NCBI GenBank assembly: GCA_963751515.1
Contig: CAVVUR010000002.1
Location: forward strand, 69,888 to 133,887
Direction of reading: 5' to 3'
Source: an uncultured delta proteobacterium
GTDB lineage: Bacteria; Desulfobacterota; WTBG01
DNA: 64,000 nucleotides
The translations under genes and the position numbers were made by a program. Position 1 is the stretch's first letter, and each line of letters starts with the position of its first letter. This document shows, piece after piece, positions 14,539 to 43,565 of the stretch. The notes under the pieces were generated by a model. That model saw only the letters and a list, made by a program, of their open reading frames with translations, was not told the origin of the DNA and did not search any database.

Positions 14539-15750
14539 ATGGACGTTCACCAACACGCGGCACCGGTGCAGAAAAAGTTTTTTACCCGGGGCATGATAAT
14601 GCTGACCGCAATCATGCTCAGCGGGCTCGCGTTCGGCCTCTACCGCATGTTATTCGGCCTTAAGGCAGTCACCAATTTAAATGACCAGTATCCGCTGGGT
14701 CTCTGGATCGGGGTTGATGTGGCCACCGGTGTCGCGCTGGCGGCCGGCGGCTTTACTTCGGGCGCGCTGGTCTACGTTTTCAACCGCGAGAACTTTCACG
14801 CGGTCATCCGCCCTGCCCTGCTGACCGCCCTGCTCGGCTACACCTTTGTGGGTATCGGGCTCATGTTTGACCTGGGACGCTGGTATAACATCTGGCATCC
14901 GGCGGTTCCCTCCATGTGGCAGGGAAATTCCGTGCTGTTTGAAGTCGGCATGTGCGTGATGATCTATCTGACGGTCCTGTATATGGAGTTTGTCCCCGTT
15001 GTCTGCGAGCGTTTCATCGGTCGCGTCAAACTTCCCGGCCCGCTCGGCCGGTTTAATGACAGGGTGGACATTGCGCTCCGGTTCGCCGACCATATCCTGG
15101 GCCGGATCATGTTTCTCTTCATCATTGCCGGCATAACCCTCTCCTGCCTGCACCAGTCCTCCCTCGGCACCCTTATGGTCATTGCCCCTTACAAGATGCA
15201 CCCCCTCTACCGATCGCAACTGGGACCGCTCTTCTTCCTTACCTCCGCCTTCGCAGTGGGACTTTGCATGATCATCTTTGAATCGATGATTGCCGGCAGG
15301 GCCTTCGGGCGAAAACCGGAGATGCATGTGCTCACCCCGCTCGCAAAAATCATCCCCTGGCTGCTGGGTTTGTACATTGCCGTCAAGCTGGGAGATATGC
15401 TATGGAGGGGAAGTTACCTCTATCTTATGGATGACCATCCTGCAGTTATAATGTTCTGGATTGAATTCGGCCTCCTGACCGTGGCGCCGTTCTTCATGTT
15501 CATGTCATCGGATATCCGCCGCTCGCCCCGCTCTCTTTTTATCGCCGCCTCCATGTATATCGTCGGGATTCTGCTAAACCGGTCAACCGTCTTTTTCATT
15601 GCTTACCAGCCGCGCTACGCGGTTAAGGCCTATGTTCCCGCCATGGGTGAATTTGCCCTGACCATCGGACTCATTCTCACCGTTGTTTTTATCTACCGCG
15701 CCCTGGTATCCCTGCTGCCGGTGCTGCCCGCTCCGGAAAAAGAGAGCTGA
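14539..15750 (+). CDS. NrfD/PsrC-family quinone-interacting membrane subunit (HmcC-like)
   Basis: 403 aa, ~10 TM helices; translationally coupled to the preceding FeS subunit (2-nt gap). Confidence 0.75.
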   Translation: MDVHQHAAPVQKKFFTRGMIMLTAIMLSGLAFGLYRMLFGLKAVTNLNDQYPLGLWIGVDVATGVALAAGGFTSGALVYVFNRENFHAVIRPALLTALLGYTFVGIGLMFDLGRWYNIWHPAVPSMWQGNSVLFEVGMCVMIYLTVLYMEFVPVVCERFIGRVKLPGPLGRFNDRVDIALRFADHILGRIMFLFIIAGITLSCLHQSSLGTLMVIAPYKMHPLYRSQLGPLFFLTSAFAVGLCMIIFESMIAGRAFGRKPEMHVLTPLAKIIPWLLGLYIAVKLGDMLWRGSYLYLMDDHPAVIMFWIEFGLLTVAPFFMFMSSDIRRSPRSLFIAASMYIVGILLNRSTVFFIAYQPRYAVKAYVPAMGEFALTIGLILTVVFIYRALVSLLPVLPAPEKES

Positions 15751-15799: not shown

Positions 15800-18700
15800 T
15801 TAAGGCACTGAACAGCCGGCGCAGTCGGCCCGCAAAAACTGCTCTTTCATGATTACCAGGTCGGCGAGGTTGACACTGCCGTCATTGTTGCCATCAGCCT
15901 CACAGGGGTTGCTGCCGCAGCCGGTGCTGAGGAACTCCCTCTTCATTATTACCAGGTCTGAAAGATCAACTTTGGCATCACAGTTACAATCTGCGTAACA
16001 CTCGCAGGCATCGCCGATCCCATTACCGGAAACATCACCCTGCCCCCGGTCACAGTAATGACCGTCTCCGCATGCAGGATCGCCGGTGCAGTCCCCCCCG
16101 GTCGCAATAACCACGCCGCTTGTTTCCTTCACGCACCTGCCCAACTCCGGGCCATTGGGAAGGTCAGGGCAGTTATCATCACAACCTTCGGTCAAGCCGC
16201 CTGAACAGAAATTATCGCCGGCGGTTCCGCTCGAGTCGCCGTCGGCCAGAACGCCGTCGCCATCCTCGTCCCCCGGATTTACACACCGGTCCAGTGGTTC
16301 ACTGCATACTAACGGGGGACAGGGATTCCCGGAGTGCTGGGAGCAACTGCCGGAGCTGCAGGTGTCGGCACCGTTGCAGAATGTACCGTCGTTACACACC
16401 GTGCCGTCGGCCCGGGGCCGGGAAATGCATTGATCAAGGGTGTCGTCACATACCCCCGCGGTGCACTGGTCGTCCAGGAACGAGCAGTCCCTGGCTGAAC
16501 CGGCCCCGCAGGTACCATCCGAACAGAAGTCTCCCACTGTGCAGTAGAGGCCATCTTCACACGGACTTCCGTTGGAGATGACGGTGTGTATGCAGGAGCC
16601 TGATCCGCTGCAGGTGTCGCTGGTACAGGAGTTGCCGTCATTGGAGCAGGGGGTTCCCGCCGGGTTATAGCAGCTGTCGGTGCCTTCCTGGCATTGCTTG
16701 CATTCCGTTTCCGGGCAGGGCGGTACGCCGGGGCGGCAATCGCCGACGGGATCGCACTGCTCGGGGCCATTGCAAAACAGGCCGTCACTGCAGAGGGCAT
16801 CGTCGGGTTCAAACCGGCAGCCGGTCAGCGGATCGCAGAAGTTATCGGTACAGCCGATACCATCATCACAGAGGGAATTGACGGGACTGTGCACGCAGGA
16901 CCTGCTGCCCTCAAGGCAGGAGTCTGCCGTGCAGTCAATGCCGTCGCTGCAATCAGGCGGACTGCCGCCATGGCAGATGCCGTCGGTTCCGCAGCTCTCC
17001 ACGCCGCTGCAGAAATATCCGTCATCGCACTCCCCGTCATCGCCGCACGCGGTGAAACAGAATTCCCCTGCCTGCACCGTGACAGCCAGCTGGAAAATTA
17101 AATCCTGCACCCCCACATTGATGGGAGTGAGCGTCCTGCACGCTCCCACCGGCGCCGAGGGTGAAACGCGATGCGCAAGGGTAAAGATGGGTCCGGCTCC
17201 GGGCTCAATGAGGTTCCCGATGAAAGAAACCAGGGACACCCGGCAGCAACCGTTGACTTCATTGGATGAACAGGTGAACCCCGCTGTGCGTTCCGTAGTC
17301 GTACAGCCGCTGCAGGTAAGGTAGTTATCTGTATCACAGATTTCCATCTGCATGCCTTTCACCTCACTGAAGGAGGTGGCAAGACTCACCTCAGCTTCGC
17401 CCCCGGCTGAGCCGGGAGGTCCCGTGCCGTCTTCCACGGTGATGGTGATCGGCTGACACTGGTCTGTCGCCTCATTGCAATCCCGGCCCCTGCAGGGGTA
17501 GTCATTGGGAAACTGAAACAGCAGATCGCAGACGCCGGTATCACAGGTTTCTGTCCCGTTGCAGAAGAGGCCGTCATTACAGTCTTCATCCTGTGTGCAG
17601 TTGCAGAGATCCTGCGACTCATTACAGACCGATCCCGATGGACAGGGATCGCCGGCGTGCAGCGAGCACATTCCGCCGCTGCAGGTGTCCTTGCCGTTGC
17701 AAAACGCCCCGTCATTACAGGAGGCGCTGTTGGGGAGCTGCACGCAGCCGCCCGACCCGTCACAGACATCGTCGGTACAGAGGTTTCCGTCATCACCGCA
17801 GCGGGTTCCGGCCGGGTCGAAACAGCTGTCGGATGCTTCCTGACAGGCGTTGCACTCCGTGCCGGGGCAGGGGGCTGTGCCGGGCTGACAGAATCCGCCC
17901 CCACAGGTCTCCAGTCCGTTGCAGAATAACCCATCGTCACAATCTTCGTCATCGGTGCAGGGGATGAGACAGATATCCTGTGCCTCGTCGCAGGTGGAAG
18001 CGGGAGCGCAGGGATCACCGCTGTGGGTGCACACATTGTTTGCCTCATCGCAACCCTCCGCGCCGTTGCAGAAGAATCCGTCGTTTCCGCAGGGAGGAGT
18101 GCCCGCACGGCAGATACCCTCGCACTGTTCTTCACCGTTGCAAAAAATACCGTCATCACAATCGGCATCGGAGGTGCATACGTAAAAGCAGAACGAACCC
18201 TTCCCGGTTATCACCGGGAGCTCGACGGGATTTCCGTTCACGTCCTCGCCCAATACCGATACCTCTTCGGGGTTGAGGTCCCTGCACCCGGAGGAGGGGG
18301 CGCCCCGCGATACCCGGTAGGCAAGCGCAAATACCGGGCCTTCGCCCGGCGGGATAGGATCGGCAGCGCCTGAATTTATGGCAATGACCCTGACGCAGCC
18401 GTTGGTCAGGTTTTCATAGAAGCAGGAAAAGCCGGCGGGGGTACGCCCGGCAGGCTGGCAGCCGGTGCAATCGAGATAGTTATCCACATCACAGACATCA
18501 ACCGAGATGGCCCGTACCGGATTGCCGGGATTGGTGAGGCTTATCTCTACGGGATTGTTGGATGAACCCGGCAGACCCGATCCCTCTCCCAGGGTGAGGA
18601 AAAGAGGAGCTTCTCCCTCCAGGCAGAGATCCGTTTCCTCATCGCAGACGAACAGGGGCGGGGTCTGACAGGGGTAGGAGCCGGCACGGCAGTTGCCGCT

Positions 18701-19867
18701 GCCGGTATCACACCGCTCCACGCCGTTGCAGAAGAGTCCGTCACTGCAGTTTGCATCGGTTGTGCAGCTCACGAAGCAGAATAATCCCGAGCCGGTTACT
18801 ACCGGGAGCTCGATGGGATTTCCGCTCACGTCCTCGCCCAATACCGATACCTCTTCGGGGTTGAGGTCCCTGCACCCGGAGGAGGGGGCGCCCCGCGATA
18901 CCCGGTAGGCAAGCGCAAATACCGGGCCTTCGCCCGGCGGGATAGGATCGGCAGCGCCTGAATTTATGGCAATGACCCTGACGCAGCCGTTGGTCAGGTT
19001 TTCATAGAAGCAGGAAAAGCCGGCGGGGGTACGCCCGGCAGGCTGGCAGCCGGTGCAATCGAGATAGTTATCCACATCACAGACATCAACCGAGATGGCC
19101 CGTACCGGATTGCCGGGATTGGTGAGGCTTATCTCTACGGGATTGTTGGATGAACCCGGCAGACCCGATCCCTCTCCCAGGGTGAGGAAAAGAGGAGCTT
19201 CTCCCTCCAGGCAGAGATCCGTTTCCTCATCGCAGACGAACAGGGGCGGGGTCTGACAGGGGTAGGAGCCGGCACGGCAGTTGCCGCTGCCGGTATCACA
19301 CCGCTCCACGCCGTTGCAGAAGAGTCCGTCACTGCAGTTTGCATCGGTTGTGCAGCTCACGAAGCAGAATAATCCCGAGCCGGTTACTACCGGGAGCTCG
19401 ATGGGATTTCCGCTCACGTCCTCGCCCAATACCAGCGCTTCTTCCAGATCCAGATCCTTGCACCCTGAGGAAGGGGCCCTCCCGGACACCGTATATGTAA
19501 GCTTAAGCACCGGGCCTTCGCCCGGCGGGATAGGATCGGCAGCGCCTGAATTTATGGCAATGATCCTGACGCAACCGTTGGTCAGGTTTTCGTAGAAGCA
19601 GGAAAAGCCGGAAGGGGTGCGCCCGGCAGGCTGGCAGCCGGTGCAGTCGAGATAGTTATCCACATCACAGACATCAACCGAGATGGCCCGTACCGGATTG
19701 CCGGGATTGGCGAGGCTTATCTCTACGGGATTGTTGGATGAGCCGGGCAGGCCCGATCCCTCTCCCGCAGTGATGGTCACCTGAGCATAGAGCCGGCATG
19801 AACATCCCCAGGCCAGGATTAAAAACATGGCTCGAATAAGAAGGTTTATCCGGGGTCCTTTTATCAT
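15800..19867 (-). CDS. Giant secreted Cys-rich scaffoldin-like protein: 4 cohesin-like modules, DGxFCNG-type Cys-rich repeats, TSP3-like Ca-binding stretch, C-terminal dockerin-like module
   Basis: Start moved to ATG 19867 (AAGGAAG RBS; signal peptide MIKGPRINLLIRAMFLILAWG). Four modules of type GEGSGLPGSSNNPVEISL..VRAISVDVCD..; many C.DG.FCNG..C units; DDNCPDLPN; C-terminal duplicated DLSDLVIMKREFL / DGSVNLADLVIMKEQFL. Confidence 0.65.
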   Translation of the reverse strand: MIKGPRINLLIRAMFLILAWGCSCRLYAQVTITAGEGSGLPGSSNNPVEISLANPGNPVRAISVDVCDVDNYLDCTGCQPAGRTPSGFSCFYENLTNGCVRIIAINSGAADPIPPGEGPVLKLTYTVSGRAPSSGCKDLDLEEALVLGEDVSGNPIELPVVTGSGLFCFVSCTTDANCSDGLFCNGVERCDTGSGNCRAGSYPCQTPPLFVCDEETDLCLEGEAPLFLTLGEGSGLPGSSNNPVEISLTNPGNPVRAISVDVCDVDNYLDCTGCQPAGRTPAGFSCFYENLTNGCVRVIAINSGAADPIPPGEGPVFALAYRVSRGAPSSGCRDLNPEEVSVLGEDVSGNPIELPVVTGSGLFCFVSCTTDANCSDGLFCNGVERCDTGSGNCRAGSYPCQTPPLFVCDEETDLCLEGEAPLFLTLGEGSGLPGSSNNPVEISLTNPGNPVRAISVDVCDVDNYLDCTGCQPAGRTPAGFSCFYENLTNGCVRVIAINSGAADPIPPGEGPVFALAYRVSRGAPSSGCRDLNPEEVSVLGEDVNGNPVELPVITGKGSFCFYVCTSDADCDDGIFCNGEEQCEGICRAGTPPCGNDGFFCNGAEGCDEANNVCTHSGDPCAPASTCDEAQDICLIPCTDDEDCDDGLFCNGLETCGGGFCQPGTAPCPGTECNACQEASDSCFDPAGTRCGDDGNLCTDDVCDGSGGCVQLPNSASCNDGAFCNGKDTCSGGMCSLHAGDPCPSGSVCNESQDLCNCTQDEDCNDGLFCNGTETCDTGVCDLLFQFPNDYPCRGRDCNEATDQCQPITITVEDGTGPPGSAGGEAEVSLATSFSEVKGMQMEICDTDNYLTCSGCTTTERTAGFTCSSNEVNGCCRVSLVSFIGNLIEPGAGPIFTLAHRVSPSAPVGACRTLTPINVGVQDLIFQLAVTVQAGEFCFTACGDDGECDDGYFCSGVESCGTDGICHGGSPPDCSDGIDCTADSCLEGSRSCVHSPVNSLCDDGIGCTDNFCDPLTGCRFEPDDALCSDGLFCNGPEQCDPVGDCRPGVPPCPETECKQCQEGTDSCYNPAGTPCSNDGNSCTSDTCSGSGSCIHTVISNGSPCEDGLYCTVGDFCSDGTCGAGSARDCSFLDDQCTAGVCDDTLDQCISRPRADGTVCNDGTFCNGADTCSSGSCSQHSGNPCPPLVCSEPLDRCVNPGDEDGDGVLADGDSSGTAGDNFCSGGLTEGCDDNCPDLPNGPELGRCVKETSGVVIATGGDCTGDPACGDGHYCDRGQGDVSGNGIGDACECYADCNCDAKVDLSDLVIMKREFLSTGCGSNPCEADGNNDGSVNLADLVIMKEQFLRADCAGCSVP
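18190..19790. repeat. 588-bp tandem repeat (~2.7 copies), in frame within the scaffoldin-like gene
   Basis: 18241-18790 and 18829-19378 look identical base for base; a third, diverged unit follows. Each 196-aa unit is a cohesin-like module plus a Cys-rich linker. Confidence 0.9.
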
Positions 19868-19880
19868 TGCGGCTTCCTTA

Positions 19881-20702
19881 TCATCTGCAGGCCTCACAAC
19901 AATTGGTCTTGCCCAGTGCCCTGTCCACAATCACCAGGAGGTCAAAGGTATCGAACGTACCATCGGTTTGGCAATTTGAGGAGTCAGAGGGGCTGCCGCA
20001 GAAAGGGGGCATTCCATTGGGTACATCTCCATGGAGTTGCTGACAGGAGTTCGCCGTCCTCCGCCCCGAAACCAGGTCAGCACCCTCCATCACGTCCAGA
20101 AGGTTAACCGTCCCATCACCGCAGGCGGTGCCTGCCGGGGAAATCCCCTGGGGGTAAATATCACCATACGAAGAAAGGCAGAACTCACCATCGGCGGTGG
20201 TTACATCAAGCGAGGCACCCGACTGATCCGATACATTCTCATGGTTAATGCTAAGTGTGGTGCATGCATCGTTCCAATTCTCCTCACCCACGGTGTAGCT
20301 GAGGGTGCACACCGGGCCGGTTCCCTCCTGGATGAGAAAACCCTGGAAAGAAATGAGCACCACCCGGGCACATCCATTATCCAGTTCACTGGCAAAGCAG
20401 GAAAAATGGGAGGCGCGGCTGGTAGTCTTGCAGCCTCCTTTATCTGCTATGGTGAGATGGTCTTCGGGATCGCACACCTCCATCTGAACGGCCTTTATTT
20501 TATTTCCCGTATTTGAGAGGTTTATATCAACCTTATTGTCTGATGAACCGGGAAGGCCTGATCCCGTGCCCGGGGCAAGCGTTACCTGAGAACAGGTGAT
20601 GGAGGGCACGCCTGCCAGGCATAGCAAGACCGTGCTAACGAATAAAAAAAGGCATCCGAATTTAGCTTGTATTCGGAGCGGCATTTCCATGCATCTATAC
20701 AC
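19881..20702 (-). CDS. Secreted cohesin-like + atypical dockerin-like protein
   Basis: Signal peptide, then the module GTGSGLPGSSDNKVDINL..IKAVQMEVCD. C-terminus GDGTVNLLDVMEGADLV ... GDVPNGMPPFCG ... DGTFDTFDLLVIVDRAL. Stop lies 13 nt before the start of the downstream giant gene. Exact start (20702 or 20684) is uncertain. Confidence 0.6.
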   Translation of the reverse strand: MYRCMEMPLRIQAKFGCLFLFVSTVLLCLAGVPSITCSQVTLAPGTGSGLPGSSDNKVDINLSNTGNKIKAVQMEVCDPEDHLTIADKGGCKTTSRASHFSCFASELDNGCARVVLISFQGFLIQEGTGPVCTLSYTVGEENWNDACTTLSINHENVSDQSGASLDVTTADGEFCLSSYGDIYPQGISPAGTACGDGTVNLLDVMEGADLVSGRRTANSCQQLHGDVPNGMPPFCGSPSDSSNCQTDGTFDTFDLLVIVDRALGKTNCCEACR

Positions 20703-25407: not shown

Positions 25408-26756
25408 TTAACAGTTGGGAAAGCCTGTCCGTATAAACGGCTTCATCTGCGCTTCGACCGGCACGGTGGCCATCTTCTGCATCATGGCGATAATATCCGG
25501 GCGCTCTTTCTGGATGACATCCATTTTTCTCATAATGGATCCGTTGATGTTGTTCACCAGGTTGTAGGGATTGAGCGAGCAGGGAAGTATTTCGGTGACC
25601 AGCTTGTAGAGATAATTGGCCACATCCTCTCCCACCAGCCCCGCGCTCAGCAGGGTCAGGAATTCCCGGTAGTCCATAAATCCGGGTAAATTCTTCAACC
25701 ACCAGTCAATGTAGTGCTGCACTCCCTCCCGGTTGGGCTTGTTGTTGCGCAGCGCTTCGGTAATCGCGTTTGCGGCCCTGGAGCCGGTCATCATGGAGCC
25801 GGTGCATTCCGCCTCCACCGTCCAGCCGGCGTCCCCGGTGATGAGCACGTTGTCTTTAAACGGGATTGGCGCCGGCGACCAGATGTTGGCCACGTGCCCG
25901 TGCCGCCTGAGGATGGTGGCACCCTTGAACCAGCCTGAAAAAGGGCTGTCCTTGATGGTCCGGTCAATCACCTCCTGATAGTTGATCTCCGGGTGCGAAC
26001 ATCCCCCCGCGTATACCCAGGATTCGTCTTCCCCATAAGGGCTGAGGCCGACCCAGAGCATGATGGGCAGCCTGCCATTATGAAACACGATGGGATAATT
26101 TACCGCTTCTGGATAGGGCGGCCGTACCCCCTGCATGTAATAGCCGGCGCCGACGATGGTGCCGAAGAAGGAGCGCTGCTGGTTCAGGCCCAGAATTTTC
26201 ATCAGCCGCGAGTTGACGCCGTCAGCGGCTATGGTGAATGTCCCCTTGAAAATTTTCCCCTCGGCGGTGCTGATCTCATTGACCCCGTCGGCACGCCGGT
26301 GCCCGATGACATTCATGCCCGGGAACACCTTGACGCCGCTTTCCAGCGCTTCGCTCATCAGTCCATTGAGCAGCTCATGCTTGTTATAAAAGGCGGAAAG
26401 GCGGGTTTTGCTTCCACCCCGCTTGTTTTTTTCATAATCACCCAGCCGCACACAGTGCTTCCCGTCAGGGGTATAGACGTTCCAGGCATAGAAGTTCTTG
26501 AAAGGGCCGTCATAGCGCACCGAGAAGTTGTTGACCGGGAACACGATGCGGCGCTGCTTTTCATCGAAATACATCCGCTCCCCGAAGTAGTATTCGTCTT
26601 CAATTGCAACCATGGTCTGGCAGCTGCGCTGAATGGCGGTTACATTTTTCTTGCGTTCAATCAGGGCGACATCCAGGCCGTTCTGTCCCGCCACCTTTGC
26701 CGCCATCAGCCCCGCGGGGCCTCCCCGACAATTACCACATCAAACACTTTTGCCAT
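25408..26756 (-). pseudogene. FAD-dependent oxidoreductase (geranylgeranyl-reductase-like), one N-terminal frameshift
   Basis: The ORF lacks its dinucleotide-binding start. Upstream, MAKVFDVVIVG is in another frame, and adding one G to a G-run (~26715) restores VVIVGGGPAGLMAA. Confidence 0.65.
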
Positions 26757-28839: not shown

Positions 28840-31619
28840 ATGAGAAAGCTATCAATGATTTTGTCGGTTTTGTGTATTTCATTCCTGATTGCCTTTCCGG
28901 CCTTTCCGCTATCCTATCAGATTGATGTGGGACAGGATGGAATTGATACCGGCGGAGAGGTAGTCCTTTCTGGCCAAACAAACGTGAATATTGACCTTAT
29001 AGTCGATGACTATGACTGTCCGCCTGATGACAAACTCTTCGGCGTGCAGTCATATCTTTACATTGATGAGTCGATTGTCAAGGTAAACAGCTGCACACCG
29101 CGCACAGACCGCGGGTGTGATCTTTCGCTGAGCGGATGCACGCCTGCAGGAACCCAATGTGTACAGCGTGATCTGTAGTAACTTTCGTTTTATAACTGTT
29201 TCCCGGCGGCAGCCTGACTTTTGCCACTTTTAATGTTACGGTATTGGACAGGAACGACCGTAATGAGATTGGAGAATGACATTAGTGATCTTGATCCGGG
29301 TTATGGATCCTATGGTGATGGATATGTAGCCGACTGTACCCTGACAGGTCAAGTATTTCCTGCCGATGCAAGTCTCACGATTAATCCTTCACAAGCGGTC
29401 TGCGGCAACGGAAATCCCAGCCAGGAGAGCAGTGTGATGACGGCAATACCGTCGGTGGAGACTGCTGCAGCGCCACCTGTCAGTTCGAAGGGGCAGGCAA
29501 CCCATGCGGAGACGGCAATACCTGCAATGGCGCAGAAACCTGTAACGGTACCGGCATCTGCCAGGCCGGCGCGCCGATTAACTGCAATGACTCCAACGTC
29601 TGCACCACGGACACCTGTAATCCAGCATCCGGCTGTGTGAATACCCCGATCAGCTGCGATGACGCCAGTCTCTGCACCACGGATACTTGTAATCCAGCAT
29701 CCGGCTGCGTGAATACCCCGATCAGCTGCGATGACGCCAGTCTCTGCACCACGGACACCTGTAATCCAGCATCCGGCTGTGTGAATACCCCGATCAGCTG
29801 CGATGACGCCAGTCTCTGCACAACGGATACTTGTAATCCAGCATCCGGCTGTGTGAATACCGTCATCAGCTGCGATGACTCCAACCCCAACACCACGGAC
29901 ACTTGCGACCCGGCTACCGGCGAGTGCATCCACACTCCCCCGGGTTGCACAAATCCCTGTAGCGATAATAATGCATGTACAGAGAACGACGCGTGTGTCG
30001 GTGACGTATGCACAGGCGCTCCGGTCAATTGTGACGACGCCAGTCTCTGCACCACGGACACCTGTAATCCAGCATCCGGCTGTGTGAATACCCCGATCAG
30101 CTGCGATGACGCCAGTCTCTGCACCACGGACACCTGTAATCCAGCATCCGGCTGCGTGAATACCCCGATCAGCTGCGATGACGCCAGTCTCTGCACCACG
30201 GACACCTGTAATCCAGCATCCGGCTGTGTGAATACCCCGATCAGCTGCGATGACGCCAGTCTCTGCACCACGGATACTTGTAATCCAGCATCCGGCTGCG
30301 TGAATACCGTCATCAGCTGCGATGACTCCAACCCCAACACCACGGACACCTGCGACCCGGCTACCGGCGAGTGCATCCACACTCCTCCCCCGGGCTGTAC
30401 AGATCCCTGTAGTGATAATAATGCATGTACAGAGAACGACGTGTGTGTCGGTGACGTATGCACAGGCGCTCCGGTCAATTGTGACGACGCCAGTCTCTGC
30501 ACCACGGACACCTGTAATCCAGCATCCGGCTGTGTGAATACCCCGATCAGCTGCGATGACGCCAGTCTCTGCACCACGGACACCTGTAATCCAGCATCCG
30601 GCTGCGTGAATACCCCGATCAGCTGCGACGACGCCAATCCCTGCTCTACGGACACCTGCAACCCGGCTACCGGTTGCATGAATACACCAATCAATTGCGA
30701 CGACGGCGACCCCAATACCACGGATACCTGCGATCCGGCTACCGGTGAGTGCATCCACACCCCCCCGGGTTGCATAAATCCCTGTAGCGATAATAATGCG
30801 TGTACAGAGAACGACGTTTGTGTGGGTGACGTATGCACAGGAACTCCAGTCAATTGCAATGACTCCAACCTTTGCACCACGGATACATGCAACCCCGTAA
30901 CCGGCTGCGTGTATACCCCGATCAGTTGTGATGACGGAGTAAGCTGCACCGACGATACCTGCAACCCGGCTACCGGCTGTTCGAACACCCCCAATAACGC
31001 CAATTGCCAGGATGACGGTCTCTATTGCAACGGTGATGAGGTTTGCGACCCGATTAATGATTGTTTTTCAACCGGCAATCCCTGTCCGGATGGTTCCGTT
31101 TGCGATGAGATAAACGATGAATGCGATCCGGAAGCAGGCTTAACCGTTAAGGTTGATATCAAACCCGGGTCCTGTCCGAATCCGCTCAACCTAAAGAGTC
31201 GAGGCGTTGTATCGATTGCTATACTCGGGTCAATGGATTTTAAGGTGAATGATATCGATCCCATGACCGTTATGATAGGCAGAGCAAGCGTTCCAGGGAA
31301 GGTAGCTCCCATTCGCTACAGCTATGAAGATGTTGCCACGCCTTATGAAGGTGAACTCTGCGGATGTAATCGTTGCTCTGGCGATGGGTACAAGGACCTG
31401 GTTCTTAAATTCGAAATCGAGAAACTGGTTGATACCTTAATGCTTGGAGAGGCGGCCGGGCAAACAGTCCCGCTCATCATAACCGGCAATCTTAAGGAAA
31501 GAAAGGGTGGCACAGCATTCTCGGGCCAGGACTGCATGAAAATCCTTAAGAATACTTTAAAATTAAAAGATTTGATTGACCAGTTCAAGAAAGAGAAGGA
31601 TAACCGCGGCAAGAAGTAG
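28840..31619 (+). pseudogene. Secreted Cys-rich repeat protein (N-terminal beta-sandwich-like 'YxCxPxDxLFG' domain, CGNG..GEQCDDGN unit, ~15 CDDxxxCTxDxCNPxxGC repeats), at least 3 frameshifts near the 5' end
   Basis: ORFs 28840-29178, 29221-29640 and 29637-31619 align consecutively to the paralogues at 31911 and 43579. Signal peptide MRKLSMILSVLCISFLIAFPAF. Frameshifts at ~29150, ~29200-29250 and ~29415. Confidence 0.6.
29581..30960. repeat. Nested tandem repeats: 72-bp (24-aa) units organised in a 447-bp higher-order repeat
   Basis: The unit TGCGATGACGCCAGTCTCTGCACCACGGACACCTGTAATCCAGCATCCGGCTGTGTGAATACCCCGATCAGC recurs near-identically. Blocks start at 29581, 30028 and 30475 (period 447). 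Confidence 0.9.
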
Positions 31620-31910
31620 GGATATGCATGAGTAAGTGAAAAGCAAGTTTAAGAAGTTCAGCATCGGGGCTGATAGCAGAAGCTAGCAGCCCTTAGTTTA
31701 TTAATACAACCTGAACAAATAGACTTATCGCCTGCATAGAGGGCTGAAGCTGAATTTAATATGGAATTCACAGTTATCGAACAAGCCCTTTTTTGTTTGT
31801 TCAATTGATAAAATTACTTGCACAAATTGCTCATTTGAGATAAAAGCACATTGTTGAAAACAGGCTATGTCTTTATAAGTTTAATTTTAAAACTTTGAAA
31901 AGGAGGAAGT

Positions 31911-34900
31911 ATGAAAAAGCTATCATTGATTTTATCGGTTCTGTTAATCTCAACCCTCTTTGCCATTCCAGCCTTTCCGTTATCTTATGAAATTGATGTC
32001 GGCCAGAATGGGACCTTTGAAACAACTGGTGGCAATAATGATGGGACCATCGATCTTAATGTTAATGATTCTGTAACCATGGACATTTATGTGGACGGAT
32101 ATTCCTGTGCGCCAAATGATCAGCTGTTTGGAGTACAAGCATACATGTTTGTAGATGAATCACAGGTTTCGGTTAGCGGTTTCCCTTTTAGTGTCGCAAA
32201 TGGCGGGCCTTTTGATAATGGTTTGAGTGGATTTATACAGCAAGAAGCAAATGTGTATCTTTTGTCCGCCTCCAACTTTACTTTCGTAACTGTCACCGGT
32301 GGGAAACAAAAATTTGCCACGATGACTTTATCATGTATTTCAAGCGGTACGTTTACTCTGGCTATAGCAAATGACCTTACCTCTTATGGGTACTCATCGT
32401 ATTCCGACGGATTCGTTGCGGATTGTGGCTTAGTCTATTTGTTTCCCACTACTGCGTTATTTACAATTAATCAGAACCAGCCGACCGTCTTTCCGGAAGT
32501 CGCAACCACCTGTCCGGTAGTGGCAACGACCTGCCCGGCAGTAGCGACGACCTGCCCAGAAGCGGCAACCAGCTGTCCGGCAGATCCGACGAACTGTCCG
32601 ATTGCAGCCACCAGCTGTCCGGCAGATGCGACCTTCTGTCCTGAAATACCAACGGTATGTCCTGAAGGAGTGACTACCTGCCCAGAAATACCAACGACCT
32701 GTCCCACAGGTGCGACTTTCTGCCCAGAAAATCCAACCTTCTGCCCAGAAAATCCAACCTTCTGCCCTGAAATAGCAACCGTCTGTCCTGAATCAGTAAC
32801 CGCTTGTCCAATAGTGGCGACGGTTTGTCCTGAAGGCGTGACCCTCTGTCCTGCAAATCCAACCTTCTGCCCTGAAGGTGTAACTACCTGCCCCGAAATA
32901 CCAACTGCCTGTCCTGCAGTTGCAACCGTCTGTCCTGAATCAGTAACCAATTGTCCGGTGCAGGCAACCACTTGTCCGATAGAGGCAACTGTTTGTCCCG
33001 CAGGTGCGACCTTCTGTCCCGAAATACCAACTGTATGCCCCGAGGCGGCAACGATCTGCCCAGAAATATCAACGACCTGTCCCACAGGTGCGACTTTCTG
33101 CCCTGAAAATCCGACCTTCTGTCCTGAAATACCAACAACATGCCCTGAGACAGCAACTGTCTGTCCCGTAGAGGCAACGGTGTGTCCGGAGGAAGCAACG
33201 GTTTGTCCGGTAGAGGCAACAGTGTGCCCGGAGGAAGCAACTGTCTGTCCTATAGAGACAACAGTTTGTCCAGTAGGCGCGACCTTCTGCCCTGTAACTG
33301 AAACTGCCTGTCCTGAAACGGAAACGGTGTGCCCCGCCGCTGATTGTCCGTTAGCTTATAAGTTCGATTTTGATGGTGACAGGTACTGGGATACAGAATG
33401 GGAATTAACTCCTCCTGACCCACCTGCTGCCGGCGAGACAGTTCAAGTTGACATCTGGCTGAATGGATATGTGTGTCCGCCGAGTGACGATCTTTTTGGC
33501 ATACAGTTATACTTTTTGTATGATCCAAATGCCATGCAGGTGATCCAGGCCTATCCTAATAATAGCGATCACGGAGGACCTTTCGATCCGAGCCTAAGTG
33601 GATTTCTACCGCAGGCGCCCGGAATATATCAATTGATTGCCGCAAGTTTCGATTTTGTCTCAGTGATTGGTAACAGGATTTTAGTGGGAACGATTGAACT
33701 GCAGTGTACAGAGGCCGGCAGTAACATTGCGATTGTGGCTGCAGACGACCTGGGATTTGATCCATATAGAGATGGATTTGTTGCAGACTGCGAATCTGTT
33801 TCGCAATTTCCCATCGAAGCTATTGCAACAATATACCAACTGTGCAACTCAGATGCAGACTGCGATGACAGTAACCAGTGCACCACGGAATATTGCGACA
33901 CAGAAACAGACAGATGTGTTTATACTGTATTGGAAAATGACACACCCTGTGATGACGGTGTGTCCTGCAATGACCCTGATATTTGTGTTGACGGACAATG
34001 CGTGTTTCAGGGTGACCCCTGCTGCGAGATTGCCATCGACCCCAAAACTGCCGAAGCGTATTACGGCGAGACCATCCAATTTACGGTCTCTGAGAAAGGA
34101 GACTGCAACCCGACGCCTTGTTACACCTGGGAAGTGCTGGCCTCGGGCGGCACGGGGAACACCACAGAGAGATACAGCTGGGCGGCTGCGGCTGAGGCAG
34201 GCACAGGCAACACGGCGGGCGGTGGTGTGATAGACGAGAATGGCCTCTATACTGCCGGAGATTCTGTAGGTACCGACATCGTTAGGGTAACCGACAACTG
34301 CAGCACTGGCGCACCCTACGATGAGGCGGAAGTGACTGTTACCGGACCGCCTCCAACAACTACAACAACAAGCGTAAGACCGACAACCACCACTACGAGT
34401 ATAGAAACAGAATGTGATGAGGATATAGACTGTACTGATGAATTGTACTGCAACGGCGCCGAGACATGTGTAGGTGGAATTTGCCAGGACGGGACGCCGG
34501 TTGCCTGCACTGATGACGGACAATTCTGCAATGGCACGGAGAGCTGCAGCGAGCAGGCTGATGCGTGTGTCAGTTCCGGCAATCCCTGCGGGACCACACA
34601 ATCCTGCAATGAGACAACCGATGCATGCGAGCAGCTTGCCCGGATTGACGCGCTTTTGCCTCCTTCCTGGTATCAGTCAAGGTGGATACCCTTGATCAGG
34701 CCGCTGCGCATTGTCGGATCAGGCACCAGTTTTCAGGCTCGTGAATCAAAAGTTACCTTTGAGCCGAACATTGCCGTATTTCCGTTCTTTTCGAGAGTCG
34801 TGGATGAAGAAAATATCCTCATCTGGACCTATATCATGCCGCAGTGGCTGACCAGGCCGCTCGAGGGACCTGTACAGGTGACAGTCACTACCGGTTCTGA

Positions 34901-34973
34901 AGTAGTATCTGCCGACTGGGATATCAATTTGCTCCCCTTCCCACTTGATCAAGAAGGGGCGGATCTGGAGTAA
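31911..34973 (+). CDS. Secreted modular Cys-rich protein: two 'YxCxPxDxLFG' beta-sandwich-like domains, 40 PxxxTxC heptads, Cys-rich DG..C.. repeats, Ig-like region, Thr-rich linker
   Basis: 1020 aa; AAGGAGG RBS; signal peptide MKKLSLILSVLLISTLFAIPAF; paralogous to the N-termini of 28840 and 43579. Confidence 0.6.
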   Translation: MKKLSLILSVLLISTLFAIPAFPLSYEIDVGQNGTFETTGGNNDGTIDLNVNDSVTMDIYVDGYSCAPNDQLFGVQAYMFVDESQVSVSGFPFSVANGGPFDNGLSGFIQQEANVYLLSASNFTFVTVTGGKQKFATMTLSCISSGTFTLAIANDLTSYGYSSYSDGFVADCGLVYLFPTTALFTINQNQPTVFPEVATTCPVVATTCPAVATTCPEAATSCPADPTNCPIAATSCPADATFCPEIPTVCPEGVTTCPEIPTTCPTGATFCPENPTFCPENPTFCPEIATVCPESVTACPIVATVCPEGVTLCPANPTFCPEGVTTCPEIPTACPAVATVCPESVTNCPVQATTCPIEATVCPAGATFCPEIPTVCPEAATICPEISTTCPTGATFCPENPTFCPEIPTTCPETATVCPVEATVCPEEATVCPVEATVCPEEATVCPIETTVCPVGATFCPVTETACPETETVCPAADCPLAYKFDFDGDRYWDTEWELTPPDPPAAGETVQVDIWLNGYVCPPSDDLFGIQLYFLYDPNAMQVIQAYPNNSDHGGPFDPSLSGFLPQAPGIYQLIAASFDFVSVIGNRILVGTIELQCTEAGSNIAIVAADDLGFDPYRDGFVADCESVSQFPIEAIATIYQLCNSDADCDDSNQCTTEYCDTETDRCVYTVLENDTPCDDGVSCNDPDICVDGQCVFQGDPCCEIAIDPKTAEAYYGETIQFTVSEKGDCNPTPCYTWEVLASGGTGNTTERYSWAAAAEAGTGNTAGGGVIDENGLYTAGDSVGTDIVRVTDNCSTGAPYDEAEVTVTGPPPTTTTTSVRPTTTTTSIETECDEDIDCTDELYCNGAETCVGGICQDGTPVACTDDGQFCNGTESCSEQADACVSSGNPCGTTQSCNETTDACEQLARIDALLPPSWYQSRWIPLIRPLRIVGSGTSFQARESKVTFEPNIAVFPFFSRVVDEENILIWTYIMPQWLTRPLEGPVQVTVTTGSEVVSADWDINLLPFPLDQEGADLE
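32493..33332. repeat. 40 uninterrupted 21-bp (heptad) coding repeats, consensus P-[EV]-x-[AP]-T-x-C
   Basis: Counted in the translation from PEVATTC, PVVATTC ... to PETETVC; the register never slips. Confidence 0.9.
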
Positions 34974-35628: not shown

Positions 35629-35706
<78 letters not shown>

Positions 35707-35974
35707 ACGTTGATTACACCGACGCTTTCTGACATGAGGCTTCGGCCGCAATGCGATGGGATAGCATATTGGTGACTGCCCCCAAACACATGAGATCGCA
35801 TCGTGCTTTCTAATACTTTTCAGTGTTTCTGTCAAGTAGTCATTGACAGCCGCCTCTTTCTCCTCTTCACATAAAAACAGAAAACCAATAAAATGGATTG
35901 ATTTAGAACAGGGTATTTTGTTTAATGAAAGTCCTCTGGATGATTATTCCATTTTTTATGGCAGGCGCCCACCT

Positions 35975-37561
35975 ATGCAAAAAAATTACGCTGCGGCAGG
36001 CAAGGATGTGATCTCCTGGAACTCTCTTGTTGACGCCCTGGTGCTGATCACAATTTTTTCCGTGCTGCTGCTTGACTTTAACGGTTACAGATGGCTGATG
36101 CCCATTGACGAGGGGCAATGGCTTTTTTATGCCGATCAACTGTTACAGGGTAAAGTTTTATACCGGGAGATATGGTATCAATTTGGTCCAATGGTGCTCT
36201 TTGGTCTGAAGTGGAGCATGCAGATTCTTGGCAAGACCCTGGCCACGGAGCGAATCTATTTCTGGTTCTTGTCTCTCATCGGTTTAGCGGCGTTGTATCT
36301 CTTTTCAAAGCAACTATTGGAAAGAAGAACAATCAAATTACTCCTTTGCCTCATCGCCTTGCTTAACAGCCTAACCTGCAAATTAATGATGGTCAATCCG
36401 GCTTTTCTTGCAAGGCAGTGTTTCGGCCTGTTGCCATTATATCTGCTGTTTGGCTCAAGCAGCGAAAAGGGGAGATGGAAATATTTTGCAGCCGGGTTTT
36501 TAAGCATGTTTTCAATACTGGTATCCCAGGAGACCGGCACTTTTTCGCTTGTCGCATCATTGACCTTTCTGGCTATGAAGCGATTTGAATCCCGAAGGAA
36601 TGCCCTGTGCTTAAAAGAACTCTCTTGGTTCGCGGCGGCATTTCTTCTCTGCCTGCTGATGTGGATGAGTTATTGCTTACATGAAGGATTTGTGAAGGAC
36701 TACTTTGTGATCAGCTTTGGCGAAATCTTTTCCATGGTGGGGAAATACCAGCATTCCCCGTTGCCTGTGCTTTCATCCCTGATTGAAAATTACCGGAACC
36801 TGGCCGCTTATTACCACATGGCGTTGACATACTTACCAATACTTGTCTCGCTGCTTACCATCACTTATGTGGCGGCCAGCAAAAAGTTGGATGCCAGGCT
36901 CGTTTCGATATCCGTGTACGGCATCTGTTGCTTCGGCATACTTCTGGGGCGATGTGATATTTACCATTCCACATTTGCGGGACTCCCCCTCCTTATTCTC
37001 ATTTCCTACTGGTTTGAAAGGGCCCTTTGCGTCAAAGGACGAACTGCACAATACTCTATGATCAGTGTGATTACGGGTTTCTGCTTATTGCTTCTCACAG
37101 CCAATGCGTCCAATCTCAGTAAGCTTTTTGCAAACTCCCGCATAGTGAAAAAGACGGCATATGCAGAAAAATTGTCCTATTTGGGAAGTGCCATGATTCC
37201 CATGGATCAATACGAAGCCATATGGAGTGCAAAAGGGGTTATCGAACATAATTCGCATGCATCGCAAGAATTTATTATTATACTGAATTCACCATTTTAC
37301 TACTTTTTCATAGATCGCCCCACCAGCACCAGGTTTGCCACACCCCTGTTTGCAAATAATGAAGAAGCAAAGCGGGAAATACTTCAGGAATTGCGTGAGG
37401 GAACATATTACTTTGTTCTCTATGACAATATTCGGTTTCCAGCTGTAGACTATGATTATTACTTTCGGGAAATCTTTGACGTTGTGAGGGCAGGATACAG
37501 CACTTTTTCCAAAACAGGCGATCATACTTTTGTCCTGAAAATCCGAAACCGCTCACGGTAA
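35975..37561 (+). CDS. Polytopic membrane protein of unknown function (low-GC gene)
   Basis: ORF 35843-37561 (first ATG at 35975) with at least 10 hydrophobic helices followed by a soluble C-terminal part. Visibly AT-richer than its surroundings. Function not assignable. Confidence 0.4.
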   Translation: MQKNYAAAGKDVISWNSLVDALVLITIFSVLLLDFNGYRWLMPIDEGQWLFYADQLLQGKVLYREIWYQFGPMVLFGLKWSMQILGKTLATERIYFWFLSLIGLAALYLFSKQLLERRTIKLLLCLIALLNSLTCKLMMVNPAFLARQCFGLLPLYLLFGSSSEKGRWKYFAAGFLSMFSILVSQETGTFSLVASLTFLAMKRFESRRNALCLKELSWFAAAFLLCLLMWMSYCLHEGFVKDYFVISFGEIFSMVGKYQHSPLPVLSSLIENYRNLAAYYHMALTYLPILVSLLTITYVAASKKLDARLVSISVYGICCFGILLGRCDIYHSTFAGLPLLILISYWFERALCVKGRTAQYSMISVITGFCLLLLTANASNLSKLFANSRIVKKTAYAEKLSYLGSAMIPMDQYEAIWSAKGVIEHNSHASQEFIIILNSPFYYFFIDRPTSTRFATPLFANNEEAKREILQELREGTYYFVLYDNIRFPAVDYDYYFREIFDVVRAGYSTFSKTGDHTFVLKIRNRSR

Positions 37562-37855
37562 TCGATCAGCTTCTGCATCAAGGTATTATTGTTCAGCTGT
37601 CAGTGCGGCACACCTTTTCACTGCACCATCTCCACGTATAGCACGTCCTGATTGCCACGACCTATCTGCTTGATTATTCCAGTTCCCTTTTGATTGCATT
37701 GTTTTAGAACCTACGTTCATTCCATTTCCGTCTAGACACTCCCGCCATACACCGGGAGGTTTCTTCTTAAGTTTTTTGAATAATTACCGAATCATTTGAA
37801 GAACACAACCGGCAGTGAGCCCTTTGTTTGCCAATGGTTTCGCACCGAGGAATGT

Positions 37856-39538
37856 ATGAAAGATGAATCCAAGACAAAAGAGCAGCTCGTTCAAGAACTG
37901 CGGGAACTCCGTCACAGGAATGCCACGTTAGAGGGGAGAGAGGCACAGCCGCAGCATGGCGGAGAAGAAGTCAAACAAACAAAAGACCACTTGGACAACA
38001 TCATAGAAAGCTCGCTGGACGGCATCGTTGTGGGGGACAGCACGGGAAACATTGTCAGGGTGAACAGGTCGTTTTTACAAATGATAGGCTACCAGCCTGA
38101 AGAGGTGTATGGAAAACATGTAATGGAGCTTTCGATAACAGAGGAGGGGGTGTACAAATCCACCACCGGGGAAACGGTCACGGTAGATGAGGAATTTTTT
38201 AATGATGCGCGAAAAGCCACCCATGAAAAATTACTCAAGGAAGGAAAAGTAGCCAACTGGGAGACCTATTATCTCCGGAAAGACGGGAAAATTGTTCCCG
38301 TGGAGATGAACCTGACTTTTATCTATAACGAGGAGGAGGAAGTCACCGGGTCGGTCGGCATAGTGAGAGACATCACCGAAAGGAAACGAGGCACTGCCTC
38401 ATTAAAAAAATCGGAACAGAAGTATCATAACCTCATCGAGCTCGCCAGCGCGGGTATTCTTGTTGCGGAAAACGATACCATAACCCAGGTGAATAAGACG
38501 GCTGAAGAAATATACGGCTATGGTAAAGATGAGCTTATCGGCCAGTCCCCCAGCGTTTTGTCTCCCGAGAAATACAAGGAGCATCACAGAAAAATCCTGC
38601 TTGATATTTTAACCTCGGGCAAGGCAGATAAGATGATTTTTGAGGAGGAGGGTTTAAGAAAAGACGGTTCCCTTGTTCCCATCGAAATTTCCTTTACCCT
38701 CGAGGTTGAAAAGGAGAACATGATCATCGCCGTGGTGCGGGACATTTCCGAGCGCCGGAAGGCGGAGGAAGAGCGCAGCCGTCTGCTTGATGAACTGAAG
38801 GACAAGAACAAGGAACTGGAACAGCTGGTGTACATAGCATCCCATGATCTTCGTTCACCGCTGGTGAACGTTCAGGGCTTCAGCAATGAACTGGAGCACG
38901 CCTTCAAGTACGTGCAGTCCATCCTGTTTCACAGCGAAGACGTCTCCGAGCGGGTGAAGGAGACGCTCGCCCCCACCCTGGACGAGGACATCCCCGAGGC
39001 CATTCATTATATTCTTACCAGCATTGCCAAGATGGATTCATTGCTCGCCGGTCTGCTGCGGCTCGCGCGCCTGGGCCGGGCGGCGCTCAACATCAAATCA
39101 CTCAACATGAACAAAATCCTGGGCGACATAACCAAATCCTTTGAATACCAGGCAAAGGAGGCGGGTGTGATCCTCACGGTTGAAACGCTTCCTCCCTGCA
39201 TGGGGGATGAAACACAGATCAACCAGGTCTTTTCCAACCTTATCGACAACGCCTTTAAATATCGCAAGCCCAGCCAGCCGGGCGTCATCGCCATAGGCGG
39301 CGGCAGGGAAAACGGGAACGCGGTTTATTACGTGAAAGACAATGGAATCGGCATCGCCCCCGAACATCAGGACAAGATCTACGAGCTGTTCCATCGCCTT
39401 GATCCCAAAGCCACCCAGGGGGAGGGGCTGGGTCTTGCCATCACCCGCAGAATCCTTGACCGGCACACCGGGAAAATATGGGTCAAATCTGAACAGGGCA
39501 GGGGGAGCACCTTTTTTGTGTCCCTGCCGGCCAATTAG
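37856..39538 (+). CDS. PAS-domain sensor histidine kinase
   Basis: Coiled-coil N-terminus, two PAS-like regions (VRDITERK), H-box ASHDLRSPL and N/G boxes (NLIDNAFKY, DNGIGI, GLGLAI). Confidence 0.8.
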   Translation: MKDESKTKEQLVQELRELRHRNATLEGREAQPQHGGEEVKQTKDHLDNIIESSLDGIVVGDSTGNIVRVNRSFLQMIGYQPEEVYGKHVMELSITEEGVYKSTTGETVTVDEEFFNDARKATHEKLLKEGKVANWETYYLRKDGKIVPVEMNLTFIYNEEEEVTGSVGIVRDITERKRGTASLKKSEQKYHNLIELASAGILVAENDTITQVNKTAEEIYGYGKDELIGQSPSVLSPEKYKEHHRKILLDILTSGKADKMIFEEEGLRKDGSLVPIEISFTLEVEKENMIIAVVRDISERRKAEEERSRLLDELKDKNKELEQLVYIASHDLRSPLVNVQGFSNELEHAFKYVQSILFHSEDVSERVKETLAPTLDEDIPEAIHYILTSIAKMDSLLAGLLRLARLGRAALNIKSLNMNKILGDITKSFEYQAKEAGVILTVETLPPCMGDETQINQVFSNLIDNAFKYRKPSQPGVIAIGGGRENGNAVYYVKDNGIGIAPEHQDKIYELFHRLDPKATQGEGLGLAITRRILDRHTGKIWVKSEQGRGSTFFVSLPAN

Positions 39539-43458: not shown

Positions 43459-43546
43459 TATTTCACCGCAGGTCAGGGCGAGACCCCGTCTCCCCGGCCG
43501 GTTGTAAGGTGGGTCATCCAGGGGTGGTGGATCCTCGCAGCCATGT

Positions 43547-43565
43547 TCTACCCCTCCGAGGTAGA
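43547..43565 (-). promoter_or_regulatory. Hairpin 13 nt downstream of the in-frame UGA (SECIS-like candidate)
   Basis: Minus-strand RNA is UGA-N13-UCUACCUC-GGA-GGGGUAGA: an 8-bp stem (one G.U pair) with a G-rich triloop. Confidence 0.3.

Follow-up and report, generated by a model that had tools for sequence, protein, structure and literature searches.

A putative operon encoding a secreted cohesin-dockerin assembly system of non-cellulosomal type in an uncultured delta proteobacterium

The present work concerns two adjacent genes, p2 and p1, in a 64,000 nucleotide (nt) stretch of DNA from an uncultured delta proteobacterium (assembly GCA_963751515.1, contig CAVVUR010000002.1, positions 69,888 to 133,887), which is hereafter referred to as the window and to which all coordinates refer. 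Our analyses indicate that p1 and p2 encode secreted proteins in which cohesin modules are combined with a dockerin (p1) or with a tail that is probably a derived dockerin variant (p2), and they make it rather probable that the two genes form an operon, the products of which constitute a secreted cohesin-dockerin assembly system that is non-cellulosomal and builds a surface or extracellular matrix or an adhesin. The cohesins of both proteins, for which we use the label CohA, constitute a Cys-rich subfamily; the label DocX is used for the tail of p2, a type of tail that recurs at the end of the open reading frame (ORF) at 42511-43458.

Both genes are located on the minus strand, where p2 (19881-20702; 273 amino acids (aa)) lies upstream of p1 (15800-19867; 1355 aa) and is separated from it by a gap of 13 nt. 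An initial annotation, made from the sequence alone, had described two co-oriented genes of these sizes and this spacing, with four cohesin-like modules in the larger product and one in the smaller, and this description is borne out in all respects. The start codon of p2 is a GTG at 20702 that is preceded by the ribosome binding site AAGGAG 10 nt 5' of it, and for p1 the most plausible start is the ATG at 19867, 5' of which AAGGAAG is found. An independent assembly, a Logan contig of ERR10755939, contains an identical p2, which is likewise followed by a gene call at a distance of 13 nt, and the phosphoribosyltransferase neighbour of the window is found there as well. Five close homologues of p2 were found. 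A scan of the window for promoters and terminators performed no better than on shuffled sequence.

Identification of the CohA Modules as Cohesins

The Pfam cohesin model PF00963, the search first suggested for these modules, is negative for all five of them, and relaxing the threshold to E ≤ 1 gave no match in either protein. Comparisons of a single CohA module and of the CohA profile with the sequences in the PDB likewise gave nothing significant (best cohesin 4uyp, E 0.19). The silence of PF00963 does not refute the identity of these modules as cohesins, because both structural and profile-profile comparisons are positive. Three independent lines of evidence, from predicted structure, from a transitive sequence link and from profile-profile comparison, identify the CohA modules of p1 and p2, as judged from models and alignments, as genuine cohesins.

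The structural evidence comes from an AlphaFold2 model of mature p2, based on a 19-sequence alignment, which has a mean predicted local distance difference test (pLDDT) score of 80 and reaches about 90-97 in the CohA module. This module is predicted to fold as a cohesin: when the model was compared with the PDB using Foldseek, the top 50 matches were all cohesins (E 3.2e-12 to 3e-6; target template modelling (TM) scores 0.76-0.79), and they span types I, II and III as well as non-cellulosomal cohesins, with the non-cellulosomal cohesin of Archaeoglobus fulgidus (2xdh) at rank 12 (E 2e-10). The transitive link is provided by the proteins P0034 and P0036, in which the stretch that is matched by the CohA profile is also matched by PF00963, with 95.6 and 101.8 bits, respectively. 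Lastly, an hhalign comparison of the CohA alignment with five Pfam-verified cohesins yielded a probability of 99.0% (E 8e-18) over 129 columns. The CohA modules contain a median of 6 Cys each across the family representatives.

The Dockerin of p1 and the DocX Tail

The C-terminus of p1, which had been described as a canonical-looking duplicated dockerin, is recognized as such by Pfam: the segment at aa 1291-1344 (15836-15997) matches PF00404 with 34.4 bits, above the cutoff of 22.9, over model positions 1-56 of 57, and in a phmmer search it matches the dockerin of Clostridium thermocellum CelS (1daq) with an E value of 2.2e-8. This type-I-like dockerin consists of two duplicated segments, DCNCDAKVDLSDLVIMKREFL and DGNNDGSVNLADLVIMKEQFL, which are near-identical and whose helices are nearly the same. 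Both segments follow the calcium-ligand pattern D-x-N-x-D-x-x-x-D/N-x-x-D, in which D1, N3, D5, D/N9 and D12 are retained. In type I dockerins, the symmetry of the two segments underlies a dual mode of binding.

The dockerin-like C-terminus that had been noticed in p2 is also present, although its class is less securely fixed. Pfam finds nothing in the tail of p2 and gives E values of 0.31-0.68 for its relatives, and a search of PDB sequences with the DocX profile returned no dockerin; the matches to G protein-coupled receptors obtained in that search are regarded as spurious. The tail is modelled as three helices at low confidence (pLDDT 63), and its top 14 Foldseek matches are all dockerins, each of them weak (E 0.18-2.6). 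Profile-profile comparison with hhalign gave 67% when small alignments were used, and 85.2% (E 6e-6) for 36 DocX against 20 dockerin sequences, where a reversed-alignment control gave 0.6%. The consensus sequence of DocX (CGDIYPQDC..C..CGDGVVDLFDILEaIDIiLG….GDVPNGmPPYCGnP.G.pNCepDGdIDIFDvLVIIDkALGK.NCC) shows the duplicated halves of a dockerin, each consisting of a DG.V/I-D-x-F-D motif and a helix, and the helices are themselves duplicates of one another (DLFDILE.IDIILG and DIFDvLVIIDkALG). In both halves, the first Asp of the calcium loop is split from the remainder by a Cys-bracketed insertion, the length of which is 8-14 aa in the first half and, in most cases, 16 aa in the second, and DocX thus lacks the uninterrupted 12-residue, EF-hand-like calcium loop. 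The alignments and the model, which together provide moderate support, suggest that DocX is probably a derived dockerin variant. To our knowledge, no described dockerin has the layout of DocX, in which loop insertions are combined with direct fusion to a cohesin.

Domain Organization of p1 and p2

A Sec-type signal peptide is present on both proteins, and in each case a cohesin follows immediately, so that the presence of cohesin and dockerin in the same secreted polypeptides, as initially proposed, holds for p1 and, with the probable variant as its dockerin, for p2. The adaptor-like p2 consists of its signal peptide, one CohA module (aa 38-177; 20172-20591) and the DocX tail (aa 179-273; 19884-20168). 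The scaffoldin-like p1 begins with a signal peptide (aa 1-28) for which cleavage is predicted at RLYA/Q, and CohA-1 (aa 29-172; 19352-19783) starts directly after this site. A single Cys-rich unit (aa 173-224) separates it from CohA-2 (aa 225-368; 18764-19195), which is 87% identical to CohA-1 and 95% identical to CohA-3, and a second single unit (aa 369-420) precedes CohA-3 (aa 421-564; 18176-18607). The first of two longer Cys-rich repeat regions (aa 565-805; 17453-18175) contains 39 Cys in DG.FCNG and Dicty_CTDC-like units and leads to CohA-4 (aa 806-941; 17045-17452), which shares about 40% identity with CohA-1 to CohA-3. The second (aa 942-1290; 15998-17044) contains, besides the repeats, a TSP3-like DNCP..PN motif and a pre-dockerin block ending in GDACEC, and the dockerin follows.

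The N-terminal part of p1 is encoded by three tandem units of 588 bp (18020-19783), each of which comprises one CohA module and one Cys-rich unit (aa 29-224, 225-420 and 421-616). These units are 85-97% identical in DNA, which suggests a recent internal duplication in p1. They were recovered by a repeat search, with spacings of 588 and 588; Tandem Repeats Finder, whose longest period is 500, misses them.

In total, p1 contains 142 Cys (10.5% of its residues), and the Cys-rich repeats between its cohesins are of the disulfide type. An early count of about 25 Cys-rich C.DG.FCNG..C units in this protein was too high: 9 copies satisfy the strict C.DG.FCNG motif, and relaxed criteria give approximately 16-17 units. 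Neither TIGR02232, the repeat model that had been put forward for these units, nor any other NCBIfam Cys-repeat model matches p1 or p2, and the Dicty_CTDC model (PF00526) falls marginally short in p1 (26.3 bits; cutoff 27). A TSP3-like stretch, DDNCPDLPN, had also been reported in p1; the motif is indeed there, and its membership in the TSP_3 family is not supported by Pfam, as PF02412 has no match in p1 and reaches 15.2 bits, against a cutoff of 25, at the equivalent site of a p1 orthologue in the related locus L010. The C-terminal block of p1 (viz. Cys-rich repeats, TSP3-like motif, GDACEC block and dockerin) is also present in this orthologue (L010 9095-11479), and significant TSP_3 matches occur in 11 of the 72 CohA-family representatives whose Pfam domains were scanned.

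Distribution of CohA and DocX in Other Genomes

Among 1.84 billion representatives from metagenomes, 1016 representative clusters are matched by the CohA profile at E ≤ 1e-3. Architectures were counted in the top 146 CohA representatives. A CohA(n)-dockerin arrangement, with up to 7 CohA modules per protein, is found in 17 of these, CohA-DocX in 16 and CohB-CohA-DocX, in which a second type of module described below is added, in 3. CohA lies within the first 45 residues in 96 of the 146, and cleavage sites of the A-x-A type just precede it in p1 and in homologues. Other domains that co-occur in the family are PF00963, TSP_3, Dockerin_1 and Dicty_CTDC, along with sorting domains of the type IX secretion system (T9SS) in a few cases.

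DocX is present on 30 of the 146 representatives and is fused to a cohesin in all of them, starting 1-3 residues after CohA in about 24. In metagenome-assembled genomes (MAGs), it was found in four species-level GTDB MAGs, all from the Thermodesulfobacteriota/Deltaproteobacteria, one of which has six loci, the relatives returned by the GTDB scan being at most 72% identical; all 16 DocX tails of the related MAG loci directly follow CohA at a distance of 1-3 residues. Upstream of a conserved Ig-like-CohA-DocX cassette, the N-terminal parts vary and consist of CohB, Cys-rich repeats, Thr-rich linkers or other domains.

Three of the related loci (L010, L013 and L008) share, in the same order, a gene for a CohB-Ig-CohA-DocX protein, a small gene encoding a truncated cohesin that lacks Cys, and a scaffoldin gene whose product contains a signal peptide, CohA, Cys-rich repeats, a second CohA, further Cys-rich repeats, a TSP3-like motif, GDACEC and a dockerin. 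In L008, a p2-like DocX gene is also followed by a multi-CohA gene, the same order as in the window. These results indicate that the cohesin-dockerin proteins are a recurrent uncharacterised system and not a chance mosaic.

The small secreted, Cys-free protein of these loci (L010 8417-8968, L008 10622-11260 and L013 8639-9028) has no counterpart in the window. In two of these MAGs it includes an Ala/Pro/Lys-rich linker, and hhalign relates it to CohA with 94% and to verified cohesins with 88%; the dockerin of the scaffoldin may have its receptor or anchor in this protein. A different C-terminus was observed in the CohA proteins encoded at L008 16862-19015 and in P0006 and P0007, which end without a dockerin in a tail of about 75 aa (…Y.…L…P.G…I…YY…P…) that is alike by eye in the three proteins, has no Pfam match and has no counterpart in the window.

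Proposed Function and Alternative Explanations

In the assembly that we propose, the dockerin of one protein would plug into the cohesin of another, with calcium dependence assumed by analogy with cellulosomes. The p1 protein would serve as the primary scaffoldin and could collect up to four DocX-bearing proteins, such as p2 and the product of the related gene at 42511-44409, which would act as adaptors or chain extenders. Because each DocX-bearing protein brings a free cohesin of its own, the complex could branch or form chains, and the dockerin of p1 might attach the whole assembly to a further cohesin encoded outside the window. We infer that p1 and p2 would in this way give rise to a self-assembling network, as the initial annotation had suggested. 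The product would be a surface or extracellular protein matrix or an adhesin rather than an enzyme complex, because the parts attached to the cohesins and dockerins (viz. Cys-rich repeats, Ig-like segments and a second beta-module) are non-catalytic. The preference for a structural or adhesive role over polysaccharide degradation, already expressed on first inspection, remains the better inference, since no carbohydrate-active enzyme (CAZyme) or carbohydrate-binding module (CBM) is encoded nearby and the dockerin-like tails are carried by non-catalytic proteins.

A more specific and tentative extension of this proposal, which we consider possible and clearly less probable than the matrix or adhesin itself, is that the CohA-DocX dyad is a self-complementary polymerisation unit of a kind not described before, the head-to-tail chains of which would dock on multi-CohA scaffoldins such as p1 to produce a disulfide-hardened extracellular protein matrix in anaerobic diderms. 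If this were true, the CohA-DocX matrix would be a family-wide building system that is invisible to domain databases and that may underlie the formation of aggregates or consortia.

Several observations weigh against a surface matrix or adhesin assembled through these modules. A Pfam scan of p1 and p2 revealed no outer-membrane, S-layer, S-layer homology (SLH), sortase or T9SS signal, and, as the host is presumably a diderm, a Sec signal alone would carry the proteins only into the periplasm. The identity of DocX as a dockerin is weakened by the low pLDDT of its model (63), by Foldseek E values of at least 0.18 and by the silence of Pfam and of the PDB sequence searches, and the insertions that interrupt both of its calcium loops may have abolished calcium dependence. 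Lastly, the census of enzymes and dockerins covers the 64-kb window, and dockerin-bearing enzymes may be encoded elsewhere in the genome; among the 72 family representatives scanned, there is one case of a rhamnosidase domain and one of a purple-acid-phosphatase domain.

The last of these points bears on the possibility that p1 is a cellulosome-like scaffold for hydrolases or other enzymes that carry dockerin tags and whose genes lie in other parts of the genome. The layout of p1, with four cohesins and one dockerin, is that of a classic scaffoldin, and dockerins on substrate-binding proteins have been described in anaerobic methanotrophic (ANME) archaea (PMC9012536), which together with the two enzyme domains just mentioned would be compatible with such a role. 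However, the absence of a glycoside hydrolase noted at the outset proved correct: no glycoside hydrolase, polysaccharide lyase, carbohydrate esterase or CBM family is represented in p1, p2 or the approximately 40 ORFs scanned in the window, and no other dockerin-bearing enzyme was found in these 64 kb. Moreover, the DocX tails in the MAG loci (16) and among the representatives (30) are without exception fused to cohesins, the N-terminal parts examined are non-catalytic, and the metabolism encoded in the window is of the Wood-Ljungdahl and redox type and is not directed to polysaccharide use. An enzyme scaffold is hence improbable. We regard as somewhat less improbable, while still unlikely, an arrangement in which no pairing between molecules takes place, CohA being a beta-sandwich spacer and DocX a clasp in cis or a stabilising cap, so that the proteins would act as independent adhesins. 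The distance of 1-3 residues between CohA and DocX in most DocX-bearing representatives and at every related locus gives the pair the appearance of one compound unit, the calcium loops of DocX are interrupted, and for many cohesins and dockerins outside cellulosomes no partner is known (Peer et al., 2009, as summarized in PMC9012536). What this arrangement hardly explains without binding in trans is that p1 has four CohA modules lacking DocX together with a symmetric dockerin whose calcium ligands are intact, and that conserved cassettes of several MAGs encode multi-CohA and CohA-DocX proteins together.

The genomic surroundings of p1 had raised the further idea that the scaffold positions periplasmic or extracellular redox proteins, viz. 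an Hmc-like complex and multihaem cytochromes, for electron transfer. Gene scans agree with the original description of the neighbours as Wood-Ljungdahl and Hmc-like: upstream on the plus strand are genes for subunits of carbon monoxide dehydrogenase/acetyl-CoA synthase, a corrinoid methyltransferase-like protein and methylenetetrahydrofolate reductase, followed by those for a multihaem cytochrome c, an FeS protein and an NrfD-like membrane protein. A spacer of 49 nt separates the redox genes from the 3' end of p1, and the literature on ANME archaea and on sulfate-reducing bacteria (SRB) treats surface adhesins alongside conduits for extracellular electron transfer (PMC10553843). However, adjacency is the sole link within the window, and the genes are convergent (14539-15750, plus strand; 15800-19867, minus strand) and not co-transcribed. 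When all proteins of the window were used in tblastn searches of 14 related loci, no Hmc or Wood-Ljungdahl homologue was found near the family genes. In addition, six-frame scans with hidden Markov models (HMMs) place dockerin or DocX in the window only on p1, p2 and the gene at 42511-43578, and the cytochrome of the window carries cytochrome domains only. A functional link of p1 and p2 to the Hmc or Wood-Ljungdahl genes was rejected on the grounds of convergent orientation and unconserved synteny, and redox positioning, largely refuted by synteny, is very improbable. Of the explanations considered, a secreted non-cellulosomal matrix or adhesin thus remains the one that we prefer.

Related and Neighbouring Genes in the Window

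A related gene on the minus strand (42511-44409) encodes a CohB module, Ig-like segments, a CohA module (42817-43239) and a DocX tail (42514-42816). It is divided into the ORFs 43579-44409 and 42511-43578, which constitute one reading frame broken by a single in-frame TGA at 43579-43581 (…EIKGCT-stop-CDIEIYLGG…); no such break occurs in its orthologues in L005, L007, L010 and L013. Reading by eye showed an 8-bp hairpin, UCUACCUC-GGA-GGGGUAGA, 13 nt downstream of the TGA. Selenocysteine was considered at this position and rejected, as in 11 orthologues it is occupied by A, E, L, S, V or I and never by Cys, and the TGA more likely represents a nonsense mutation or a sequencing error.

CohB is a second type of module, which occurs in 43579-44409, in 28840-29640 and twice in 31911-34973. 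Its status as a cohesin is unproven: hhalign detects no relation to CohA (0.1%) and gives 6% (E 0.006) against verified cohesins, the best Pfam cohesin match has an E value of 0.017 in one of eight modules, no PDB sequence matches CohB, and ten CohB homologues showed no cohesin match. Thus, of the paralogous modules that had been reported at 28840-34973 and 42511-44409, those in 42511-43458 are true CohA and DocX, and the others are of the CohB type. The share of the window assigned to this class of proteins, first put at about 23%, is corrected to 20% ((4903+6134+1899)/64000).

At 28840-31619 (plus strand), one gene is seemingly broken across three frames (28840-29178, 29221-29640 and 29637-31619). 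It specifies a signal peptide, a CohB-type module, 15 Dicty_CTDC repeats (278 bits in 29637-31619) and then an unassigned C-terminal domain, and it is either a pseudogene or a repeat-rich gene affected by assembly indels. The ORF 31911-34973 encodes a secreted protein of 1020 aa in which two CohB modules are joined by 40 tandem heptapeptides of the form x-x-T-x-C-P-E (32511-33347, plus strand), CP recurring every 7 residues, 39 times; this constitutes an unusual, perfectly periodic Cys/Pro linker. An X-Pro dipeptidyl-peptidase of family S15 (44529-46201, minus strand) is split into overlapping ORFs in different frames, with Peptidase_S15 at 45011-46201 and PepX_C at 44529-45308. The presence of three disrupted genes within 64 kb (42511-44409, 28840-31619 and 44529-46201) suggests an error-prone assembly or gene decay.

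Genes for a PAS histidine kinase and a hybrid kinase/response regulator (37796-39538 and 40014-42383, plus strand) adjoin the CohB-CohA-DocX gene, and homologues of the hybrid kinase with 41-47% identity are located a few kb from family genes in two related loci (L001 4366-6243 and L009 2431-4068). These kinases may regulate the cohesin-dockerin system. Two ORFs of 432 and 572 aa (25408-26706, minus strand, and 35843-37561, plus strand) have no Pfam match, and the sole Rfam match in the window is one tRNA gene (35632-35706, minus strand).

Significance and Comparison with Known Systems

Non-cellulosomal cohesin and dockerin adhesins in sulfate reducers are already known (PMC10553843; PMC9012536). 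The novel elements of the present work are CohA, a subfamily that is rich in Cys and not seen by Pfam, together with the size of this subfamily; DocX, with its loop insertions and its obligate fusion to CohA; and the conserved cassettes in MAGs from unrelated surveys. Annotation by domain models would largely miss this system, as Pfam sees one dockerin in p1 and nothing in p2, and profiles of CohA and DocX would enable a proper census of such systems. Cohesin and dockerin proteins are among the few candidates for the building of aggregates by sulfate reducers and their partners. For protein engineering, a disulfide-rich cohesin and a loop-inserted dockerin could supply plug-and-socket pairs that are orthogonal to the existing ones.

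The system resembles the clostridial scaffoldins (e.g., C. thermocellum CipA and Acetivibrio cellulolyticus ScaA/ScaB) in that p1 is secreted and consists of repeated cohesins of about 140 aa with a C-terminal dockerin, and p2, a small protein with a cohesin and a dockerin-like tail that is encoded beside p1, is reminiscent of the adaptor scaffoldins. The resemblance extends to the modules, as the dockerin of p1 matches that of CelS and the predicted fold of CohA superposes on type I cohesins (TM 0.76-0.79). However, none of the further features expected of a cellulosome (viz. CAZymes, a CBM and an SLH or sortase anchor) accompanies p1 and p2, and no dockerin-bearing enzyme is encoded in the window; what is present is a scaffoldin with multiple cohesins. 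Unlike the cellulosomal cohesins, CohA is rich in Cys and is not seen by PF00963 in p1 and p2; the linkers of p1 are arrays of Cys-rich repeats and not the Pro/Thr linkers of clostridial scaffoldins; and DocX represents a second dockerin type which, in contrast to the clostridial dockerins, has insertions in both calcium loops. The host also differs from the clostridia, being an anaerobe, presumably a diderm, that has multihaem cytochromes and a Wood-Ljungdahl pathway. A duplicated-segment dockerin core that is decorated by additional structural elements has been described for Ruminococcus flavefaciens ScaA (PMC3821032), from which DocX differs in having Cys-bracketed inserts in both calcium loops and in being fused directly to a cohesin.

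Cohesins and dockerins outside cellulosomes are known across life (Peer et al., 2009, via PMC9012536), and the p1/p2 system is similar to those modules, of which A. fulgidus 2xdh is an example, in that, as far as the survey is summarized there, they occur in organisms that do not degrade cellulose and their partners are often unidentified. The archaea covered by that survey are reported in the same summary to lack large multi-cohesin scaffoldins, whereas p1 has four cohesins and as many as 7 CohA modules occur in members of its family. ANME archaea have scaffoldin-like proteins that combine a dockerin with up to five cohesins (Chadwick, 2022, PMC9012536), and syntrophic SRB possess highly expressed clusters of cohesin and dockerin genes that have been proposed to encode adhesins (Murali, 2023, PMC10553843). 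In the latter work, these proteins are named "dockerin I / adhesin 8" and "cohesin 2 / adhesin 14", a cluster of HotSeep-1 (AMM40420-AMM40427) is listed, and no close homologues are reported outside the syntrophic SRB or in other Desulfobacterota. Standard domain annotation, by which the ANME and SRB adhesins were identified, would overlook CohA and DocX. Members of the CohA family occur in MAGs of unrelated surveys and are therefore not obviously tied to ANME consortia. Set side by side by description, the published adhesins and the p1/p2 system nonetheless share a sulfate-reducer context of the Desulfobacterota type, clustered cohesin and dockerin genes, and the combination of several cohesins with a dockerin, with no cellulolytic role and a proposed function in adhesion or in the formation of a matrix.

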